Source: a plasmid. From it: a stretch of 64,000 nucleotides of DNA. The stretch lies in NCBI RefSeq assembly GCF_056746865.1, contig NZ_JBWKMP010000003.1; one strand, 5' to 3'. A program made the position numbers and the translations under genes. Below are positions 37,534 to 64,000 of the stretch, piece after piece (the first letter of the stretch is position 1; each line of letters opens with the position of its first letter). Under the pieces are notes generated by a model, which saw nothing but the letters and a program-made list of their open reading frames with translations, was not told where the DNA came from and ran no database searches.

Positions 37534-38285
37534 TATTGGTGCTAAATTTATTTCTTATAGCGACAATCATCGTCCTGCGGCGGAAGCCACTATCAGCCAT
37601 ATGCGACGTATTCGCTCGGAGGACGAATTTGATCGCCCAGTCTTTAAGTGGGTCGGCGGCAAATTTTCTGCACTGCCCATTATCTTCGAACACCTGCCCC
37701 ACGGAAAACGGTTGATAGAACCTTTCGTTGGAGGTGGCGCTGTTTTCACTAATGCCGGATTTAAAAGCAACCTGCTGAACGATATCAATAATGACCTGAT
37801 TAACTTCTATCAGACATTGCAGCGTGAAGGGCATTCTCTTATCACACTGGCATATCGTTTTTTTCAGGATTACAACTCTGCTGATGCATTTTTGAATGTT
37901 CGCAATGCATTCAACAATGGTGCTTATGATTCCCTTCACCATGCAGCGGCGTTCCTGTATCTCAATCGTCATTGTTTTAATGGCGTCACTCGCTATAACC
38001 GTAAAGGAGAGTTCAACGTCGGATATGGAAAGCAGAAATCACCCCACTTCCCTCTCGCGGAAATGGAGGCGTTCCTGGCTGACGATATTTCAAAGTATTC
38101 GGAATTTGTGTCCGGCGATTTTGCTGGTGTAATTGAGGCTGCCGGGAATGATGATGTGATTTTCTGCGATCCCCCCTATGAACCATTGCCTGACACTACC
38201 GGATTTACAAATTACTCAGGGCATAGCTTTAGGTTTGAAGATCAACAACGGCTGGTGTCACTGCTGGTGGATGCTGGATTTGCCC

Positions 38286-39191
38286 CTATATTTCCAGACA
38301 CCTGTTATCACTTAACCCATTACTGGCCCGCTGCCGTAGATATTCCCGTGGCGAGCGATAACCCAGTGCACTATGCGGATGCCATTCGTTATAATGCTCG
38401 AACGCCTCTGCAAGGTTCTTTGCTGCCGTTAACCCGTCTGGTTTAGGCATGATACTGATGTAGTCACGCTTTATCGTTTTCACGAAGCTCTCTGCTATGC
38501 CGTTACTCTCCGGACTCCGCACCGCCGTGTTCTTCGGTTCAAGCCCCAACATCCGGGCAAACTGCCGTGTTTCATTAGCCCGGTAGCATGAACCATTATC
38601 CGTCAGCCACTCTACTGGAGACGCCGGAAGCTCGTTGCCGAAGCGGCGTTCCACCGCTCCCAGCATTACGTCCTGTACTGTTTCACTGTCGAAGCCGCCC
38701 GTAGTGACTGCCCAGTGCAGTGCCTCACGGTCACAGCAGTCCAGCGCGAACGTGACTCGCAGTTTTTCTCCGTTATCACAGCGGAACTCGAACCCGTCAG
38801 AGCACCATCGTTGATTGCTTTCTTTCACGGCCACTTTGCCAGTATGTGCCCGTTTCGATGGCGGTACAGCGGTTTTTCGCTCAAGCAACAGCGCATTCTG
38901 GCGCATGATCCGGTAAACACGTTTGGCATTGATCGCAGGCATACCATCAAGTTCGGCCTGTCTGCGAAGCAGCGCCCATACCCGACGATAACCATACGTG
39001 GGCAGCTCTCCGATAACATGGTGTATACGGAGAAGCACATCCGTATCATCTGAGTGACGGCTGCGGCGACCATCTTTCCAGTCATCGGTTCGTCTGAGAA
39101 TGACGTGCAACTGCGCACGCGACACCCGGAGACAACGGCTGACTAAGCTTACTCCCCATCCCCGGGCAATAAGGGCGCGTGCGCTATCCAC
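38286..39191 (-). CDS. insD: IS2 transposase InsD (orfB)
   Basis: 301 aa, very close to IS2 InsD as recalled ([38 protein letters not shown]..). Confidence 0.9.
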
Positions 39192-39514
39192 TTTTTTGCA
39201 CGCCCGTATTCAACGGCTTCTTTAAGGAGTTCATTTTCCATCGTTTTTTTGCCGAGCAGGCGCTGGAGTTCTTTAATCTGCTTCATGGCAGCAGCAAGTT
39301 CAGAGGCAGGAACGACCTGCTCTCCTGCGGCCACAGCAGTAAGACTTCCCTCCTGGTATTGCTTGCGCCAGAGAAATAACTGGCTGGCTGCCACACCGTG
39401 TTGCCGGGCAACAAGGGAGACCGTCATTCCCGGTTCAAAACTCTGCTGAACAATAGCGATCTTTTCCTGTGTAGTACGCCGTCTGCGTTTCTCCGGTCCT
39501 AAGACATCAATCAT
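39149..39514 (-). CDS. insC: IS2 InsC (orfA)
   Basis: [26 protein letters not shown]..; start at the internal ATG of the track ORF. Confidence 0.85.
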
Positions 39515-39780
39515 CTGCTCTCCAATGACTAGTCTAAAAACTAGTATTAAGACTATCACTTATTTAAGTGATATTGGTTGTCTGGAGATTCAGGGGGCCA
39601 GTCTAGATGCCCACAGACGCGGAGCGAAAATTGTGATAACAAACAGTGGTGCGCCTAACATTCGCGAACTTTACGTTGGCAATGGCTTCAAGGTGTATCC
39701 TATGCCATCCCGTCGCTCTGTATCCTGTAAAGCATCAACGCGAATGATAGCTAACGACATTATAGCCACACTTAATTAAG

Positions 39781-39808
39781 AAAAGCCCCATATGGGGCTT
39801 TTATAACA
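39781..39808 (+). terminator. intrinsic terminator after the dam 3' fragment
   Basis: AAAAGCCCCA-tat-GGGGCTTTT. Confidence 0.5.
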
Positions 39809-39836
39809 TCAAACAAGCACCGTTACGGTACACTAA

Positions 39837-39903
39837 CAACACCATTCTGGTACTAAAAAGGAATCAAAGTAGCCTCAAAATAACACATGGACCCAAAACG
39901 GTG
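39837..39903. repeat. repeat block flanking the ParA/ParG-like operon (left copy)
   Basis: CAACACCATTCTGGTACTAAAAAG and AGCCTCAAA..CAAAACGGTG recur at 40993-41055. Confidence 0.45.
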
Positions 39904-39914
39904 TCATTCCGGCG

Positions 39915-40202
39915 TCATTTTGTATCCTCAGACTCTGCAAGCATGAGGATAGCATGGCGGATCATATTCAATTTGCTGCGATTATGCTTTTTGCTTAACG
40001 CATCAAGTACCTGGTACTCGTATTCATTGAAGCCAACACGAATGGATTTAAAATCACGTGGGGCGTCCTTATCGAGCACTTTGTTGTCTTCTGGTTGCTC
40101 ACCCGGCACCAAATCAGCTTTGCTGGCAAAAGCCTCAATTCGGCGTTCAAGATCGAGGTCTTTTACTTCGGGGGCTTTTACCGATTTACGAGGCTTAATC
40201 AC
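39915..40202 (-). CDS. ParG-like small partition protein
   Basis: 95 aa, directly downstream of and overlapping the ParA-like ATPase gene. Confidence 0.45.
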   Translation of the reverse strand: MIKPRKSVKAPEVKDLDLERRIEAFASKADLVPGEQPEDNKVLDKDAPRDFKSIRVGFNEYEYQVLDALSKKHNRSKLNMIRHAILMLAESEDTK

Positions 40203-40836
40203 TTAATAACTCCTTAACCAACATCTGGATTTCACCTTTAGCTTTCCCGTTGTCCATCTCAACAACGCCCTTCCCTTCAGCCATACAATCGCGGTAAACC
40301 TTGCGATCGCGAATGATGGTTTTCAGCAACTTCAGTTGCGGATATTCAGCCAGGTACTCTTTGGCCTCATTGGCTTCATTCACAACCGGATTGGATGGGG
40401 CCATTGTTAAAACTGCGCACGCCTTAATGCTAGGATTAGGCATCAGATCCAAAGCCTCTTCAAAGACTTCAACAAAATGCGCCAGCGTGTCTAAATCTGG
40501 CTGAGATGGCCTGAATGGAACAAGCAAAACATCCGCCGCAGTAATACCGGTGCGCATCTCTTTGCTATCACGACCAGCGGTATCAACAACCACAAATTCA
40601 TAACGCTTGTCCAGATCAAGAAGTGTTTCACGAATATTCCCAAACTTCTGGACGCAATGAATTACTGGAGAAACCTCTGCCGCATTACGGTCCGATGCCC
40701 AACGGGCAGATGTTCCTTGCTTATCTGCATCAAGTAGAACTACGTCCTTATTTGCGCGGGCAAGCTCCGCACAAATGTTTACGCTGGTGGTTGATTTGCC
40801 ACAGCCACCTTTTTGGCTGGCTACCAATATAATCAT
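40195..40836 (-). CDS. ParA/ParF-type partition ATPase
   Basis: Deviant Walker A SQKGGCGKSTT; 213 aa, small-ParA size. Confidence 0.7.
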   Translation of the reverse strand: MIILVASQKGGCGKSTTSVNICAELARANKDVVLLDADKQGTSARWASDRNAAEVSPVIHCVQKFGNIRETLLDLDKRYEFVVVDTAGRDSKEMRTGITAADVLLVPFRPSQPDLDTLAHFVEVFEEALDLMPNPSIKACAVLTMAPSNPVVNEANEAKEYLAEYPQLKLLKTIIRDRKVYRDCMAEGKGVVEMDNGKAKGEIQMLVKELLSD

Positions 40837-40992
40837 ATCCGTCCCTCGGTGTTATTTTGGTATCAAAATGGCTCCAAACAGAAGCCTTATTGATGCGGTT
40901 TTGGCTCTATAGTGGAGTCACTATGCTTTGCAAAAGTATAACACTAAACACTCGAAATTTGCCCTCTGTTGCATCCTGTTTAACACGAAGTC

Positions 40993-41055
40993 AGCCTCAA
41001 AGTGGAACCAGACACAAAACAGCACCACAACAACACCGTTTTGGTACTAAAAGAG
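40993..41055. repeat. repeat block flanking the ParA/ParG-like operon (right copy)
   Basis: AGCCTCAAAGTGGAACCAGACACAAAACAGCACC and CAACACCGTTTTGGTACTAAAAG; related to 39837-39903. Confidence 0.45.
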
Positions 41056-41121
41056 CACCAAATTAGAACCATAACAGTATAAAAAAGGCTGCAAATTGCA
41101 GCCTTTGAAGATGTAGATTTG

Positions 41122-41487
41122 TTAATCAGGGAGTGAGTTTGCCAAATTCTGTGCAGAGCGGCTTTTCGAAACGCCAGGTTTTTTAACATCCGCTGAGGCT
41201 GAGGGGTTTCCTTCAGGGTTTTCCCGAACTTCAGGCGAAATTTCAAGAAATGAAACCAGCATTTTTCTGATCACTTCAGGGCTATTATCACCGGATAAAA
41301 GCGATGCCAACATGGGAGGTAATCTGCTATCAACCTCGCCAAGAGCGATACCTGCAAGCATCGCTGTGCGCGCCATATCATTGCGATCTCTTAATGGATG
41401 GCCCTCAAGTTTTGCATCAGCATATTGCTCACTGGCGTTAAGACCAGGACGAAGATAAAACAATACTTTTCGACGTTCCTGAGACAT
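41122..41487 (-). CDS. parR: ParR-like centromere-binding protein
   Basis: RRKVLFYLRP...RNDMARTAMLAGIAL parallels R1 ParR; immediately downstream of parM. Confidence 0.6.
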   Translation of the reverse strand: MSQERRKVLFYLRPGLNASEQYADAKLEGHPLRDRNDMARTAMLAGIALGEVDSRLPPMLASLLSGDNSPEVIRKMLVSFLEISPEVRENPEGNPSASADVKKPGVSKSRSAQNLANSLPD

Positions 41488-41497
41488 GGCAACCTCA

Positions 41498-42454
41498 TCA
41501 ACCGATAGATTTTAGACCATAGACAAGAGCAAGTTGTGGATCATCAGCAACGAAAAACCTATCGTCACGAATGTTTACCTGCTCACGGATAGCATCAGCA
41601 ACAAGCGGCGCGCCGCCACCAATGACCATAACATGCGTGTATCCTTTGAAATCACTGATCACATCCAGTACGCGTGTACGGAGTCGTTCTATGCTTGACG
41701 AAATGGCTTTCTTAACATCATCAATAGCAGACGGATCGTTAATATTGTCGGTCAAATAATCCTCATCATCACGATTAATGATTAATTGATCGACATTATA
41801 ATTAGAGGTTTCGGTATTCGCTTTTGCAAGTGCCTGTCTGACCTCTTTAGTTACCAGCGAAACGCCGAGATTAGAATCGCCAAATACGCGAGAAACGGCG
41901 GTCATTTGCCCGGCGACCATCGACACATCCAGAGTAGTCCCACCAAGATCAACAATAAGCACAGAATGCGCTGGCACAAGGCTGTCGCACAGACCGATCC
42001 CTGCGGGTATTGACTCCGGGCGCACAGTCACTTTTTTGATAGTAAAAACCTGACCTTTGTTAAGGGTGACTGGTCGCATCAGGCTGGCCTTTTTCCGCTC
42101 AATATTTTTCATGTTGTATTGTGCGTCGTCGTCATAAAACTCTGCCAGTGGCAACGTGACAACTATTTCCACTTCTTGAGGCTCAATGCCACTTGTAAGC
42201 AGGGCATGATGAACAGCAAGCACATTAAGCGGGCTGTATTGCCATTCAACGTTATTCGTCGGCAGCACATCCGGCGAGATCAAGTCATATGAATATTTTT
42301 CGTCATCAATGATGTAGTTAAACGGCTTTCCTGCGCCAAATGTGGCGGACCATCCACGTTTAAAACTGTTCGGACAGATATGGGTTCGAGTTTCCCCGTC
42401 TTGTTCCCACAGCATTTTGATATTGGTAGAACCATCGTCGATAAAAATGCGCAT
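41498..42454 (-). CDS. parM: ParM (StbA) actin-like partition ATPase
   Basis: MRIFIDDGSTNIK..HICPNSFKR..AVHHALLTSG..IVDLGGTTLD..YTHVMVIGGGA is colinear with R1 ParM; start at the second ATG. Confidence 0.85.
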   Translation of the reverse strand: MRIFIDDGSTNIKMLWEQDGETRTHICPNSFKRGWSATFGAGKPFNYIIDDEKYSYDLISPDVLPTNNVEWQYSPLNVLAVHHALLTSGIEPQEVEIVVTLPLAEFYDDDAQYNMKNIERKKASLMRPVTLNKGQVFTIKKVTVRPESIPAGIGLCDSLVPAHSVLIVDLGGTTLDVSMVAGQMTAVSRVFGDSNLGVSLVTKEVRQALAKANTETSNYNVDQLIINRDDEDYLTDNINDPSAIDDVKKAISSSIERLRTRVLDVISDFKGYTHVMVIGGGAPLVADAIREQVNIRDDRFFVADDPQLALVYGLKSIG

Positions 42455-42555
42455 CATATTGCTCCACTTCTGAGACACATTTGAGAAAGAATTGAATTTT
42501 ATATGAGAAAACAAAATAAGACCAGAAGTTAGATAGCGTAAAAAGCATCAAACAA

Positions 42556-42644
42556 GAGACGTAAGAGAGACGCAAAAGAGACTTAGATGATACATGATGT
42601 ACCCACGATACCCGTTTGAGACAAATCAGAGACAAATGTGAGAA
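42556..42644. repeat. parC-like centromere iterons
   Basis: GAGAC / GAGAA cores at 42556, 42567, 42578 and 42618, 42629, 42640 with 11-bp phasing; two triplets flank a ~35-bp core upstream of parM. Confidence 0.5.
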
Positions 42645-42706
42645 GTAAGAAATCTGAAGAGTGAAAATCACAAAGTGGAGAAGATTTAAGAAAAAGGAGG
42701 TGTTAG

Positions 42707-52619: not shown

Positions 52620-52910
52620 TGAGGGCAATATCTACACCTGCTGTTTACGTCAATGATGGCATTTTTTACACATCACAACAAAATCAACGCGTTACAACCA
52701 TAAAACATTCAACAGTAGTGCGATAAAAATAGCTATAGCATACGATGCCATCTGAGGGTGATTTTTACACATTCCTTATTAATCAATAAATTACAAATAA
52801 TGTTAGCCGTTAAAGATCCAACCAACTAACTAATGATGTAAGAATTGCCCTCAATCTCCCATCTTTAAGGGCAAATCCTACACCTACAGAGAGGTGTAGA
52901 AATTGCCCTT
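52620..52910. repeat. incA-like iteron cluster downstream of repA
   Basis: About five ~21-bp copies in both orientations, for example TTGAGGGCAATATCTACACCT (52620) and TAAGGGCAAATCCTACACCT (52868). Confidence 0.5.
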
Positions 52911-53664
52911 AAGACTGCTGATAGGTGAATTTTATTTTTGTAACTCTGCCACCTTCTGTAACCTCTGAGAAAACTATTTTCATTTTTGTGTTTTTTTCGA
53001 TTTCAGCTACAGCTTTTGCCAGAAAGCTTCTCTTAAATTCGGCGTACCGTTGATAGCTTTTGGGAAGACCATAACGCTCCCGCATCCATTCAACGCCAAG
53101 TATAGCGAAGCCGCTCCCATCATCCTTTCTATACTGGCATAAGGACTCATAAAGCCGCATAGAATAAGGGTTTGTCAGGCGAGACACTTCAGTAAAATTC
53201 AGCCTCGTGAACCTCTTATCAAGCAGAGTAAAAAACGGCATGAGATATGGATTCAGATGAATAATGTAAGTCCCCCGGCGTGGTGAGTAAGCCTCCTTAA
53301 TCATCCAGGGATAAGACTCATAACTGTCTTCTGATTCGGTTGATTCATCAGGGTTATATATCGTGACTTTCTTCTCACTAAGTCCGGAGATAGCTTTACG
53401 AATATCCTTGCTGGCTTCAGCAGAGGGCAAATTATACATCTCTGCATATTCGTTGACCGTCAACTCACAGGCACCTGAACCAAGAACGCCATCCTTAGAA
53501 GCATAGCGAAGTCTTCCCACCACAATAAACAACAGTCGCTTTTGGTCGCGTGTCAGGTGATAAGCCGCCTCTGTGATCTCATTGGCCTGCGCCAAGCTAC
53601 GGCTAATTGGTGTCGCTGATTCAATCAGACTGACGGCTTTTGCCGTTAATTCCGCTCTGTTCAT
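52909..53664 (-). CDS. repA: RepA-type plasmid replication initiator (start uncertain)
   Basis: Call is contextual: no sequence motif was checked; sits between two iteron clusters with a DnaA box and AT-rich tract upstream. About 250 aa from ATG 53664. Confidence 0.55.
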   Translation of the reverse strand: MNRAELTAKAVSLIESATPISRSLAQANEITEAAYHLTRDQKRLLFIVVGRLRYASKDGVLGSGACELTVNEYAEMYNLPSAEASKDIRKAISGLSEKKVTIYNPDESTESEDSYESYPWMIKEAYSPRRGTYIIHLNPYLMPFFTLLDKRFTRLNFTEVSRLTNPYSMRLYESLCQYRKDDGSGFAILGVEWMRERYGLPKSYQRYAEFKRSFLAKAVAEIEKNTKMKIVFSEVTEGGRVTKIKFTYQQS

Positions 53665-53688
53665 AACCCTGTGTGATCCTTCAAATGG

Positions 53689-53807
53689 TGAGGGCAATTT
53701 TTACATCACTTTGAGGGCAATTACTACACCTTTTGAGGGCAAATCTTACACCTGCTGAGGGCAAATCTTACACCTCAATAGCTTAATTGAGGGCAAATCT
53801 TACACCT
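53689..53807. repeat. origin iterons (incC-like): five direct ~21-bp repeats
   Basis: TGAGGGCAA(A/T)T(C/T)TTACACCT at about 53689, 53711, 53733, 53755 and 53787. Confidence 0.55.
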
Positions 53808-53839: not shown

Positions 53840-53960
53840 CCGCGATGCCTAAAAAGGATCTAAAAAGGATTAAAAAGAGAAAAAGGTTTATAAAAATACT
53901 CTGTGGATATGTGAATTGCGTCACTTAAGGTGTAAAAATCACCCTCAATAGTTGCTGTTC
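53840..53960. other. AT-rich region with DnaA-box-like site and one inverted iteron
   Basis: AAAAAGGAT repeats; TGTGGATAT at 53902-53910 (reverse complement ATATCCACA); inverted iteron near 53929; GATC sites. Confidence 0.4.
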
Positions 53961-54050: not shown

Positions 54051-54875
54051 TTGAACATTCCCAAATTCCCATTGCCTTCACAGCCTGAAATAGAAATTCA
54101 GTTTCATGCACCTACTGTGAAAGATGCCCTGAAATATTCAGACATCAATCCGGCAGAAGACGAGGCAACCACAACAGAATACCTCAATGCTATGCAAGAC
54201 GGCGAAATTAACGACAGCTCAAACTGGACAGTTCAGGATCGCAGAACCGCGCTTTGGTGGATCTTTGTTAATTCCAGGCCTGATGCCGTCATGACTTACT
54301 CATACGAGTGTGGTCACTGTGGAAACGTTCATCACGCAGATATTAACCTTTCAGACCTTGCCGAAACGGTAGAAATCCTGACTGTCCCGCCGTTTATTAA
54401 AACTATGGTCCCTATAAACGGAGTACCAACCGAGTGGACGCTTAAACCACTAACAGGGAAAGGAGCTGAATTGCTTGAGCGTATGCGCGCCACTTTGCCT
54501 GATATGAAAACTCCAGAGTACAGTGCTGAGGTTGCTCGTCTCCGCATAGCTGAGTTGGCCTTGTGTACATCTCTGAACGACGATCCAGAAGACTTCACAC
54601 AAGCTGCAAACAGACGATTCGATATCATTGAAAACATGGCTCTGGAAACCGAGTTTACCCCTCTGGTAGCTCGCATTCAGCTCATGCAGAAAGACCTTCG
54701 CCACGGCTTAAAAATGGCTATTGAACGAGGCACAAGCCGCCTGATCCTACCGCCACAACGCTGCAAAAACGCTAAGGAGGGTGCAGACGTGACTACCACG
54801 CTGTACGCCCCATTTCTCAATAGAGAGTTTATCCCATCAATTAGATCTGAATGGATGGCTAACCATTATCAATAA
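54051..54875 (+). CDS. hypothetical protein
   Basis: 274 aa; TTG start after GGAGG; contains CGHCG. Confidence 0.35.
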   Translation: MNIPKFPLPSQPEIEIQFHAPTVKDALKYSDINPAEDEATTTEYLNAMQDGEINDSSNWTVQDRRTALWWIFVNSRPDAVMTYSYECGHCGNVHHADINLSDLAETVEILTVPPFIKTMVPINGVPTEWTLKPLTGKGAELLERMRATLPDMKTPEYSAEVARLRIAELALCTSLNDDPEDFTQAANRRFDIIENMALETEFTPLVARIQLMQKDLRHGLKMAIERGTSRLILPPQRCKNAKEGADVTTTLYAPFLNREFIPSIRSEWMANHYQ

Positions 54876-62014: not shown

Positions 62015-64000
62015 ATGTGCGCAGATAAAGTAAAGAACATTGTCACCTTATCTTCGGACATTTCCGCTCCACTAATTGCAGACATGCAATACTTTGAGCT
62101 GTATAGCACCGAAGCTCTAAACAGGAAGATGAAAAATATCGTTCTGCCCGGTGTGTACTGTGGGTTTGAACCGGTGCCAGGGGATGGCCTGTTTGTGCGG
62201 ATTACATCCGAGAAAACAGAGGGAAGAGGGGCGGCTTCAGTTGACGTGGGTAAATGTCAGATATCCGTGCAGCAAGTCAGTGATGTTGTTGTTCCTGTAG
62301 AAGCAGGTGTAACGACAATCATCGTTCTTGAAGCTAATTACGAACATGGAGTGAAAACCAGCCAGGTAGATAGTTCATCGGATATTAGCGCAGCGAGAAT
62401 TATAGCTCTCGTTGATGAGGGCATAGCATCTAACCAGATTGAGCTATGCCGAGTGATCGTGCCTGACAATGCTCAAGCCGTTACCGCAGATATGATTAGC
62501 ACTAAATATCGCGCTAATCGTGCTGTAGGTGTTGAGTTCTCCAGTGCTTTGGATAGTGACGAAGAATATAAAGCTGCAACCCCCCTTGCTATCAGCACGT
62601 TAAATAAACTTAAAGCTCCGGTTGATAGCCCGGAATTTATAGGTATCCCTACATCTCCAACTCCGGAACAAGGTACAAACAGTACACAAATCGCAAACGC
62701 TGCCTTTGTTCAGGCCGCTATAACCGCACTTATTGATGGTTCTCCTTCAGCGTTGGATACGCTGAAAAAAATTGCAGATGCAATAAACAATGATCCCCAG
62801 TTTAGCCAGACGATTAATGATGCTTTAGCTCTTAAAGCGCCGTTATTAAGCCCGGCATTTACGGGGGTTCCAACAGCTCCTACGGCGTCACAAGGTACGA
62901 ACAACACTCAGATTGCAACAACCGCTTATGTTCGTGCCGCTATTTCTGCATTGGTCGGCTCATCACCAGAAGCTCTTGATACTCTTAATGAGCTTGCTGC
63001 GGCGCTGGGCAATGACCCGAACTTTGCGACTACAATGACAAATGCCCTGGCAGGTAAGCAGCCTCTCGACGCAACCTTAACCGCGCTCGCTGGCCTGGCG
63101 ACGGGGGCAAATAAATTACCGTACTTTACCGGAACAGACACTGTAGCCCAGACTGATTTAACGTCAGTCGGTCGCGATATTCTTGCTAAAACAAGCACAC
63201 TGGCTGTTATCCAATACCTTGGTTTAAGAGAACTCGGAACCAGCGGAGAAAAGCTCCCCCTGTTGAGCACAGCTAATACCTGGAGTGCACGCCAGACTTT
63301 CAGCGCGGGGATCACTGGTACGCTGACCGGGAACGCCGATACTGCGACGAAATTAAAAACAGCCAGAAAGATTAACGGTGTGGCATTTGATGGGTCGGCA
63401 GATATTACTCTGACCCCTGAAGATCTTGGCTTAACGGATATTGCTTCTCAAGCTGGTAACGCAGTTCAGCGTTCTGGCGACACAATGGGGGGGCAGCTAA
63501 AAATTGGCACAATAAATGCCCTTCGAATATTTAACCAGGACTTTGGCCTTATCTTCAGGAGATCCGAGGAATATCTTCATCTTATCCCGACAAATGAAGG
63601 GGAGGGTGAAAATGGTGACATCGGGCCATTAAGACCATTTTCTATAAACTTAAGAACTGGGTTGGTGTCCATCGGTAACGGCGTAAAAGTTGGCGGTGGT
63701 ATTACTGGTAATTTGACGGGAAACGCAGATACTGCCACAAAGCTCAAGACAGCTCGAACGATCGGCGGAGTGTCATTTGATGGCAGCGCCAATATCGACC
63801 TGCCTGGCGTGAATAAAACAGGTAATCAGAGCACTACCGGCAATGCTGCAACCGCAACGAAACTTCAGACGGCACGCACAATCGGCGGAGTGTCATTTGA
63901 TGGCAGCGCCAATATCGACCTGCCTGGCGTGAATAAAACAGGTAATCAGAGCACTACCGGCAATGCTGCAACCGCAACGAAACTTCAGACGGCACGCACA
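62015..64000 (+). CDS. tail fibre protein (3'-truncated by window end)
   Basis: ATG with GAGGG Shine-Dalgarno; open for 662 codons to the window edge; repeated tail-fibre motifs (SPxFTGxPTAPTAxQGTNNTQIA, GxLTGNADTATKLKTAR..GVxFDGSA). Confidence 0.7.
   Translation, partial: MCADKVKNIVTLSSDISAPLIADMQYFELYSTEALNRKMKNIVLPGVYCGFEPVPGDGLFVRITSEKTEGRGAASVDVGKCQISVQQVSDVVVPVEAGVTTIIVLEANYEHGVKTSQVDSSSDISAARIIALVDEGIASNQIELCRVIVPDNAQAVTADMISTKYRANRAVGVEFSSALDSDEEYKAATPLAISTLNKLKAPVDSPEFIGIPTSPTPEQGTNSTQIANAAFVQAAITALIDGSPSALDTLKKIADAINNDPQFSQTINDALALKAPLLSPAFTGVPTAPTASQGTNNTQIATTAYVRAAISALVGSSPEALDTLNELAAALGNDPNFATTMTNALAGKQPLDATLTALAGLATGANKLPYFTGTDTVAQTDLTSVGRDILAKTSTLAVIQYLGLRELGTSGEKLPLLSTANTWSARQTFSAGITGTLTGNADTATKLKTARKINGVAFDGSADITLTPEDLGLTDIASQAGNAVQRSGDTMGGQLKIGTINALRIFNQDFGLIFRRSEEYLHLIPTNEGEGENGDIGPLRPFSINLRTGLVSIGNGVKVGGGITGNLTGNADTATKLKTARTIGGVSFDGSANIDLPGVNKTGNQSTTGNAATATKLQTARTIGGVSFDGSANIDLPGVNKTGNQSTTGNAATATKLQTART
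63761..64000 (+). repeat. 120-bp tandem repeat within the tail-fibre gene
   Basis: 63761-63880 is repeated identically at 63881-64000 (ATCGGCGGAGTGTCATTTGATGGCAGCGCC...), encoding a 40-aa unit. Confidence 0.8.

Follow-up and report, generated by a model that had tools for sequence, protein, structure and literature searches.

Hexamer arrays at 11-bp spacing around a parA operon as its probable centromere and operator sites

The centromere of a type Ib partition operon usually lies upstream of parA, where it also serves as the operator (PMC3074162, PMC5016525). In TP228 the parH centromere is accompanied by separate OF operator repeats, which lie between the centromere and the genes (PMC5016525). 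Two-sided arrays are known from the type Ib operons of pB171 (parC1/parC2), pSM19035, and pESBL (PMC7602700, PMC4270457). ParB of pESBL binds its repeat arrays in electrophoretic mobility shift assays (PMC7602700), and the functional pB171 par2 constructs keep both parC1 and parC2 (PMC4270457). The locus considered here lies in a 64-kb stretch of plasmid DNA (contig NZ_JBWKMP010000003.1, hereafter the window), which its sequence identifies as a D6-like (p0111-type, rep_cluster_1704) Escherichia coli phage-plasmid. It comprises a parA gene and a small gene for a 95-amino-acid (aa) protein, probably with a ribbon-helix-helix (RHH) fold, together with three arrays of degenerate hexamers with the palindromic consensus GGTACC at 11-bp spacing. 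Judged from sequence and from analogy with described systems, these repeats are probably (at about 0.8) the cis-acting sites, centromere and operator, of a type Ib partition cassette. The GenBank record of phage D6 lists the two genes as 'possible ParA partitioning function' and 'hypothetical protein' and annotates no cis site, and the literature search found no description of a centromere for the D6-like ParA cassette. The locus thus reads as an uncharacterised member of the known two-sided type Ib layout and differs in its adaptor family, its 11-bp hexamer period, and its tandem parMR operon.

For comparison, pB171 par2 was represented by the double par locus of the same type on pMAR7 (L008:43166-44443). 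Both loci encode homologous ParA proteins (43% identity, E 4e-58) and a small protein of about 91-95 aa whose gene lies 3′ of parA and overlaps it. Both adaptors combine a basic N-terminus (MVKK in pMAR7, MIKPRK here) with a C-terminal RHH-like segment, and both loci have repeat arrays on either side and a co-resident type II parMR operon, forming a double par locus. However, the adaptors share no detectable similarity (BLASTP E 2.1), and the repeats are [AT]TCA[CT]A in pMAR7, with nine upstream and six downstream, but GGTACC-type at 11-bp spacing here. The gene order also differs, as parMR and parAB diverge around a shared parC1 in pMAR7 whereas here they lie in tandem, separated by a terminator. 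Strict membership of the pB171 par2 family was therefore rejected on adaptor and repeats, while the ParA homology and the two-sided architecture are common to both.

TP228 provides the closest protein structures, with ParF the best solved-structure match to the ParA of the window and ParG the best structural match to the 95-aa model. Its adaptor likewise has a flexible N-terminal tail followed by an RHH domain. The TP228 boxes are tetramers with 4-bp spacers, in contrast to hexamers with 5-bp spacers here. In general plan, a centromere of short direct and inverted boxes with A/T-rich spacers plus OF (PMC5016525) matches the distal and proximal upstream arrays of the window, although the cited literature mentions no array 3′ of the TP228 genes. 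Strict membership of the ParFGH family was rejected, as there is no Pfam or PDB sequence match and the units are hexamers at an 11-bp period.

Two further systems differ more. The type Ib ParAB system of the IncI plasmid pESBL has an octamer parS repeat, GATAACAA. R1-type parC consists of 11-bp iterons in two clusters flanking the promoter (PMC5016525), which resembles the 11-bp period and the two upstream arrays around the -10 element found here; the motor is a Walker ATPase here rather than actin-like, the unit sequence is different, and the downstream array is additional.

Three arrays of hexamers at 11-bp spacing

A preliminary description of this DNA had reported two composite motifs that occur in swapped order downstream and upstream of the operon, as possible centromere sites or scars of a cassette insertion. 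Both motifs are present as reported. Motif 1, CAACACCNTTNTGGTACTAAAA, has exactly two copies in the 64 kb, at 39837-39858 and 41031-41052 and both on the plus strand, and none in 100 dinucleotide shuffles. Motif 2, AGCCTCAAA-N(8-20)-CAAAACNG, also has exactly two copies, at 39871-39901 and 40993-41022, and none in the shuffles. The order is indeed swapped between the two sides, and the only departure lies in the downstream copy of motif 1, which has five A's before the G where the upstream copy and the reported pattern have four. The resemblance between the two sides is also significant on alignment. The best ungapped direct match between the two non-coding regions, 31 of 38 positions between 39835-39872 and 41029-41066, scores 20.5 against 8.3 ± 1.0 in 500 dinucleotide shuffles, none of which reached that score. 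An exact 12-nt inverted match, CCAAAACGGTGT, was equalled in one of 500 shuffles.

When the non-coding DNA is written in rows of 11, a G-rich hexamer appears every 11 bp, and the two motifs prove to be fragments of larger structures. There are three arrays of degenerate GGTACC hexamers separated by A/T-rich 5-mer spacers, with a half-site in either orientation (GGTxxx or xxxACC; Table 1). Motif 1 corresponds to two neighbouring units, AACACC and GGTACT on the plus strand, and motif 2 to one unit (AGCCTC) and the edge of another. The reported two-sided blocks (39837-39903 and 40993-41055) were therefore correct but incomplete, since the arrays extend beyond both and a third array beside the start of parA had been missed. 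The swapped order is a by-product of units that are degenerate and partly palindromic and so turn up in both orientations, not a rearrangement.

The downstream array, in which seven of nine spacings are exactly 11 bp, is proposed as a second centromere site by analogy with parC2. The distal upstream array keeps 11-bp spacing apart from one 6-bp step and is proposed as the main upstream centromere, comparable to parC1 or parH. The proximal array begins about 15 bp below the candidate -10 element and runs down to the parA ribosome-binding site, a position from which it is proposed to act as an autorepression operator and possibly also as part of the centromere. Across D6-like variants its unit positions are kept while the unit sequences have changed. 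Similarly, TGnTATACT at the -10 is invariant in five diverged D6-like sequences, whereas its flanks vary. The iterated short repeats 5′ of parA, distal and proximal around this conserved -10, are those expected of a type Ib locus.

The periodicity stands out from the rest of the window. Lag-11 self-identity was computed for all 100-bp windows of the 64 kb, with a background of 0.25 ± 0.05, and the top non-overlapping windows were 42544 (0.57), 40999 (0.48), 39820 (0.46), 277 (0.45), and 40847 (0.44). The first is the iteron region 5′ of the neighbouring parM. The distal array ranks second (0.48), the downstream array third (0.46), and the proximal array is within the top five (0.44-0.46), so three of the five best windows lie in the flanks of the parA operon. 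Separately, 240-420 is a short-period repetitive stretch that is among the top windows for lag-10, lag-11, and lag-12 self-identity (0.44-0.49).

A second line of support comes from an 11-column weight matrix, built by expectation-maximisation and trained only on the flanks of eight other loci (L003-L006, L010-L013) whose adaptor proteins are 42-89% identical to that of the window. Training gave the consensus GGTACCATTTT, which carries about 5 bits of information. When sites of at least 5 bits are counted in 110-bp windows across the 64 kb, the highest densities are at 40984 in the distal array (15 sites) and at 39786 in the downstream array (12 sites). No other 110-bp window has more than eight, and of the two that reach eight one is the proximal array. 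In the flanks of the homologues outside the window, GGTACC is enriched 115-fold over background.

Several simpler measures were tried and set aside. Sites chained at 11 bp with at most two mismatches from GGTACC were too strict, as the downstream array ranked first but the others did not, and the weight matrix was used instead. A per-locus count of sites with at most one mismatch from GGTACC was not discriminating, and a table of shared pentamers was weakly informative, so class-specific pentamer counts replaced it. Tandem Repeats Finder (min_score 40) misses all three arrays because the units are too degenerate.

Table 1. Positions of the hexamer arrays, genes, and signals of the partition region in the window
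Feature	Coordinates	Strand	Remarks
Downstream array	39805-39905	minus	10 units, between the RHH gene stop and the hairpin; gene strand: GACACC, GGGTCC, GTGTTA, GAGGCT, GATTCC, AGTACC, GGTGTT, TGTACC, GGTGCT, GATGTT
Proximal upstream array	40848-40919	minus	7 units in perfect 11-bp register: GACTCC, AGAGCC, CGCATC, GGCTTC, GGAGCC, GATACC, AACACC
Distal upstream array	40993-41070	minus	8 units, directly after the parMR terminator: GGTTCT, GGTGCT, AGTACC, GGTGTT, GGTGCT, GTGTCT, GGTTCC, GAGGCT
Candidate extended -10 of parA promoter	40935-40943	minus	TGTTATACT (gene strand), between the two upstream arrays
parA (213 aa)	40195-40836	minus	
Small gene (95 codons)	39915-40202	minus	From the open reading frame (ORF) list; 8-nt overlap with the parA stop
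GC-rich palindromic hairpin	39781-39802	no strand	AAAAGCCCCAT/ATGGGGCTTTT, perfect 11+11 inverted repeat
parM	ORF 41498-42514; annotated homologue corresponds to 41498-42454	minus	First in minus-strand order
StbB/ParR gene	41122-41487	minus	3′ of parM
Intrinsic parMR terminator	41084-41106	minus	AAAGGCTGCAATTTGCAGCCTTT + T-run; terminator scan, 10-pair stem; invariant in D6-like relatives

The ParA-adaptor pair and its homologues

ParA is a 213-aa Walker ATPase with the deviant Walker A motif KGGCGKST and no N-terminal DNA-binding domain. It matches the Pfam families AAA_31, MipZ, CbiA, and VirC1 and aligns over its full length with ParF of TP228 (4dzz, E 3e-18). Its size falls within the range of small ParA proteins (about 200-230 aa), and by sequence it is a type Ib Walker ATPase. 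The second gene has the size and position of a type Ib adaptor gene, with 95 codons directly after parA.

The adaptor itself matches no Pfam family at E ≤ 0.01 and nothing in the PDB by sequence. Its N-terminal tail is basic (MIKPRK), and its predicted β-strand reads KSIRVGF. An AlphaFold2 model from a 12-sequence alignment reaches a predicted local distance difference test score (pLDDT) of 91-95 over residues 61-90 and has an extended segment at 50-58 with helices at 60-73 and 77-94, giving a β-α-α arrangement over 50-94. The best Foldseek match of this model is ParG (1p94, probability 0.89, E 0.12), and almost all others in the top 25 are RHH proteins (Arc, CopG, TacA, AmrZ, ParD), all at E 0.12 or worse. 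Pfam RHH_1 gives a weak match in five of the 12 homologues (E 2e-3 at best). An RHH fold is therefore probable from the model. The label 'ParG-like' given earlier holds for the architecture, a flexible N-terminal tail with a C-terminal RHH, but not for the sequence family, as the protein lacks any Pfam match.

The family profile aligns in register with CopG (E 0.42), which places S/A51, R53, and G/P55 on R4, T6, and T8 of CopG. These three are the base-contacting residues in the CopG-DNA structure. At the other end of the protein the motif M-[IV]-K-x-R is conserved, with R5 invariant and K3 near-invariant, followed by a helix over residues 16-29 in which F25 and A29 are invariant and E23 is near-invariant. 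Likeness to the ParG tail makes this motif and helix candidates for the ParA-contacting, ATPase-stimulating part (PMC5016525).

A tblastn search with the 95-aa protein found homologues in 210 PLSDB plasmids. Of these, 118 at ≥60% identity are D6-like elements, and a matching parMR is found in 120 PLSDB plasmids. The remainder occur in Serratia, Chimaeribacter, Aeromonas, Arsenophonus, Moraxella, Acinetobacter, Desulfobaculum, and others. This search supplied the distant homologues; a word-indexed protein search returned only close D6-like relatives, and a scan of viral contigs gave 19 D6-like loci and one distant one, adding no diversity. In every fetched locus the small gene follows a ParA of 209-214 aa, and in none of the non-D6 loci is parMR next door.

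The arrays accompany this gene pair. Two-sided GGTACC-type arrays at 11 bp are found in D6, L002, L003, L004, L005, Serratia L006, Chimaeribacter L010, Kacie_13 L011, and Desulfobaculum L016, the last being the most striking with seven GGT[AG]C sites upstream and nine downstream. They persist where the downstream neighbour is glnS rather than dam (L002, L005, D6). The best lag is 11 or 22 in most homologue flanks; L010 and L011, whose arrays are short, are exceptions.

The repeat sequence also changes with the protein. In all GGTACC-type loci (alignment A1) the adaptor carries the C-terminal pattern [RK]-x-[FY]-K-[SA]-[IL]-R-V-x-F-N-E-[YF]-E-[YF]...R-S-K-L-N-x-I-R-x-A, and loci with the β-strand K-[SA]-[IL]-R-V have GGT[AG]C in their flanks. 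The Moraxella and Acinetobacter homologues instead have a strand of the form ...-H-T-I-x-M-N-E-..., with TAGTT/AGTTCT-type repeats in both flanks, from which GGT[AG]C is absent. By the CopG alignment, the R-to-T and G/P-to-Q changes therefore fall at predicted DNA-reading positions. A third repeat type is the [AT]TCA[CT]A of the pB171-type locus of pMAR7.

Two side observations concern individual homologues. The adaptor of the Moraxella bovis plasmid L014 is annotated as DUF1548 (Pfam PF07579, E 1e-4), and DUF1548 may therefore be an RHH partition adaptor. The D6-like L003 and L004 encode an identical ParA (WP_052930745.1), while their adaptors are 88% and 76% identical to that of the window by tblastn, which suggests that within the cassette the adaptor and its sites recombine or diverge faster.

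Proposed mechanism and alternative explanations

From this evidence we infer the following mechanism. Dimers of the RHH protein would insert their paired β-strands into the GGTACC-consensus hexamers, and would bind cooperatively to degenerate units in either orientation. As the hexamers recur every 11 bp, approximately one helical turn, neighbouring dimers would line up along the same face of the helix. The distal and downstream arrays would then form partition complexes, acting as centromeres that bracket the operon, while the proximal array between the -10 and the ribosome-binding site would also be an operator for autorepression by the RHH protein. The basic N-terminal tail with its invariant R5 may stimulate ATP hydrolysis by ParA on the nucleoid, and ParA would in turn position the copies of the prophage-plasmid and move them apart.

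A more speculative extension concerns the geometry of the complex. The studied type Ib centromeres, those of omega and ParG, have 7-8-bp spacing. The same-face 11-bp spacing and the division of the upstream repeats into two arrays around the promoter follow type II parC in geometry, so the adaptor might form a one-sided or superhelical filament like that of ParR, and the upstream and downstream arrays might pair in cis, looping out and silencing their own operon. This is rather unlikely. If true, occupancy of the looped centromere would couple assembly of the partition complex to gene dosage, and the family, which spans Enterobacterales to Desulfovibrionales in about 210 PLSDB plasmids, would be a structurally distinct class of type Ib segrosome.

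Several observations weigh against reading the arrays as centromere and operator. The two-sided layout is not universal, since the Aeromonas locus L012 has an upstream array only, with a Tn3 adjoining its downstream side, and the Arsenophonus locus L013 has only a few units. The covariation is based on three specificity classes and approximately 14 loci. The lack of a Pfam match for the adaptor, the weak E values of its Foldseek matches, and the weak RHH_1 matches all bear on the fold. The proximal array contains no GGT[AG]C pentamers, and the units are so degenerate, at about 5 bits of matrix information, that single units are not callable with confidence. Finally, a promoter scan by consensus, a method that depends on a good -35, found no parA promoter, so the promoter is placed by the conserved -10 alone. 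Nonetheless, the centromere alternative of the preliminary description is well supported, as predicted sites, by the periodicity, the co-occurrence with the RHH gene in unrelated replicons, the covariation of protein and repeat, and the published precedents.

The arrays might instead serve transcription control only, by autorepression upstream and as a roadblock or insulator downstream, with partition provided from elsewhere or by parMR alone. The position of the proximal array fits this, as does that of the downstream array, which is part of the 3′ untranslated region and precedes the terminator hairpin, and the plasmid already carries a complete parMR system with its own iterons. However, ParA proteins of type Ib depend on an adaptor bound to DNA, and there is no other array of the GGTACC-type hexamer in the 64 kb. 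Type Ib operators and centromeres are, moreover, the same or adjacent repeats (PMC3074162, PMC5016525), and the downstream array has no obvious regulatory target yet is kept in most relatives. The retention of parC1 and parC2 in pB171 par2 constructs (PMC4270457) and the in vitro binding of pESBL ParB to such arrays (PMC7602700) also argue for partition, and a purely regulatory role is unlikely. It is very unlikely that the repeats belong to another protein or function, as extra ParR (StbB) sites, replication iterons, or phased A-tracts that curve the DNA with no specific binder. The distal array does lie directly after the parMR operon, ParR iterons share the 11-bp period, and A/T-tract spacers phased at 11 bp would be expected to bend DNA on their own. 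Yet the unit of the ParR-type iterons 5′ of parM is another one, GTCTCT, the 22-bp iterons of replication type at 53689-53775 bear no relation to the arrays, and GGTACC arrays accompany the parA/RHH pair in plasmids that lack parMR.

The second alternative raised at the outset, that the blocks were left behind when recombination brought in the parA cassette (as att-like sites, terminal repeats, or a target duplication), is the least probable of all. The cassette does behave as a discrete insertion or deletion. In the D6-like Enterobacter hormaechei plasmid L017 the dam stop, a single hairpin, and the parR stop lie within 26 bp in all, and the cassette is therefore a discrete module of arrays, genes, and one extra terminator. 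There are also signs of mosaic exchange, with the cassette approximately 94% identical to the majority D6-like type but parMR only approximately 80%, and a 38-nt direct repeat brackets the operon. However, that repeat and the 12-nt inverted match are both internal to the arrays, which are themselves 11-bp periodic, and the third array lies within the operon leader. The ORFs at 39781-41106 include no recombinase or transposase, and the blocks have no terminal inverted repeats and no exact terminal or target-site duplication; they were thus rejected as mobile-element ends or scars. Arrays of the same hexamer also surround homologous gene pairs in unrelated replicons, where the sites are unrelated too; they travel with the pair and change with the protein's β-strand. 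The comparison with a cassette-free element, L017, gave neither genes nor array remnants, and together with the missing hallmarks of transposition this leads to rejection of the scar reading.

Host element, neighbouring features, and significance

Over 39606-41200 the window shares 99.8% identity with non-mobilizable plasmids of 92-94 kb from E. coli and E. marmotae, which have tail and baseplate genes, and 88% with phage D6 itself. The type II parMR operon and the type Ib parA-RHH pair follow one another in tandem on the minus strand, with the parMR terminator as the boundary between parMR and the type Ib cassette and a 285-bp non-coding region between that terminator and parA. On the other side a 112-bp non-coding stretch 3′ of the small gene is closed by the GC-rich hairpin, beyond which lies the 3′ end of the convergent dam gene. 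Sitting between the convergent dam and parA-RHH units, this hairpin probably terminates transcription from both directions and marks the outer end of the cassette here. It is absent from the terminator-scan output, and an equivalent hairpin lies 3′ of the downstream array in L003 and L004.

Upstream of parM, at 42530-42680, there are two clusters of 11-bp iterons with the core GTCTCT on the parM strand, picked up by Tandem Repeats Finder at 42554-42582 and 42617-42643. These are very probably the parC centromere and operator of the type II ParMR system, in two clusters like R1 parC.

The neighbourhood of dam varies between elements. In many D6-like elements (L002, L005, and D6 itself, L009) a complete gene for glutaminyl-tRNA synthetase, glnS, separates the partition cassette from dam, whereas the window and its closest relatives lack this gene. 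Relative to the near-identical plasmid NZ_LR890273, the window has a 1336-bp insertion at approximately 38270-39605 that splits the dam methyltransferase gene, which resumes at 39606 and stops at 39779. Only about 200 bp separate the insertion from the downstream array. Its ORFs, read by eye, resemble InsC/InsD of IS2, and its size fits IS2 plus a 5-bp target duplication.

Two further repeats lie elsewhere in the window. A 22-bp unit, TGAGGGCAAATCTTACACCTTT, is repeated 3.9 times at 53689-53775 (84% matches), between ORFs 52909-53697 (minus) and 54051-54875 (plus), with an 11-bp repeat nearby at 53849-53877; both look like replication-initiator iterons of the plasmid replicon. At 63747-64000 the window ends within a 120-bp tandem repeat (2.1 copies, 97% identical), which is probably part of a coding region.

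E. coli, Salmonella, and Shigella commonly carry D6-like (p0111-type) phage-plasmids, of which PLSDB has approximately 120 complete records. The arrays provide a likely centromere and operator for a partition module so far annotated without a cis site. They add an example of the two-sided centromere layout and leave the general picture of partition unchanged. The proposed specificity pair of hexamer and β-strand is directly testable and could predict incompatibility among co-resident phage-plasmids or plasmids that carry related cassettes.

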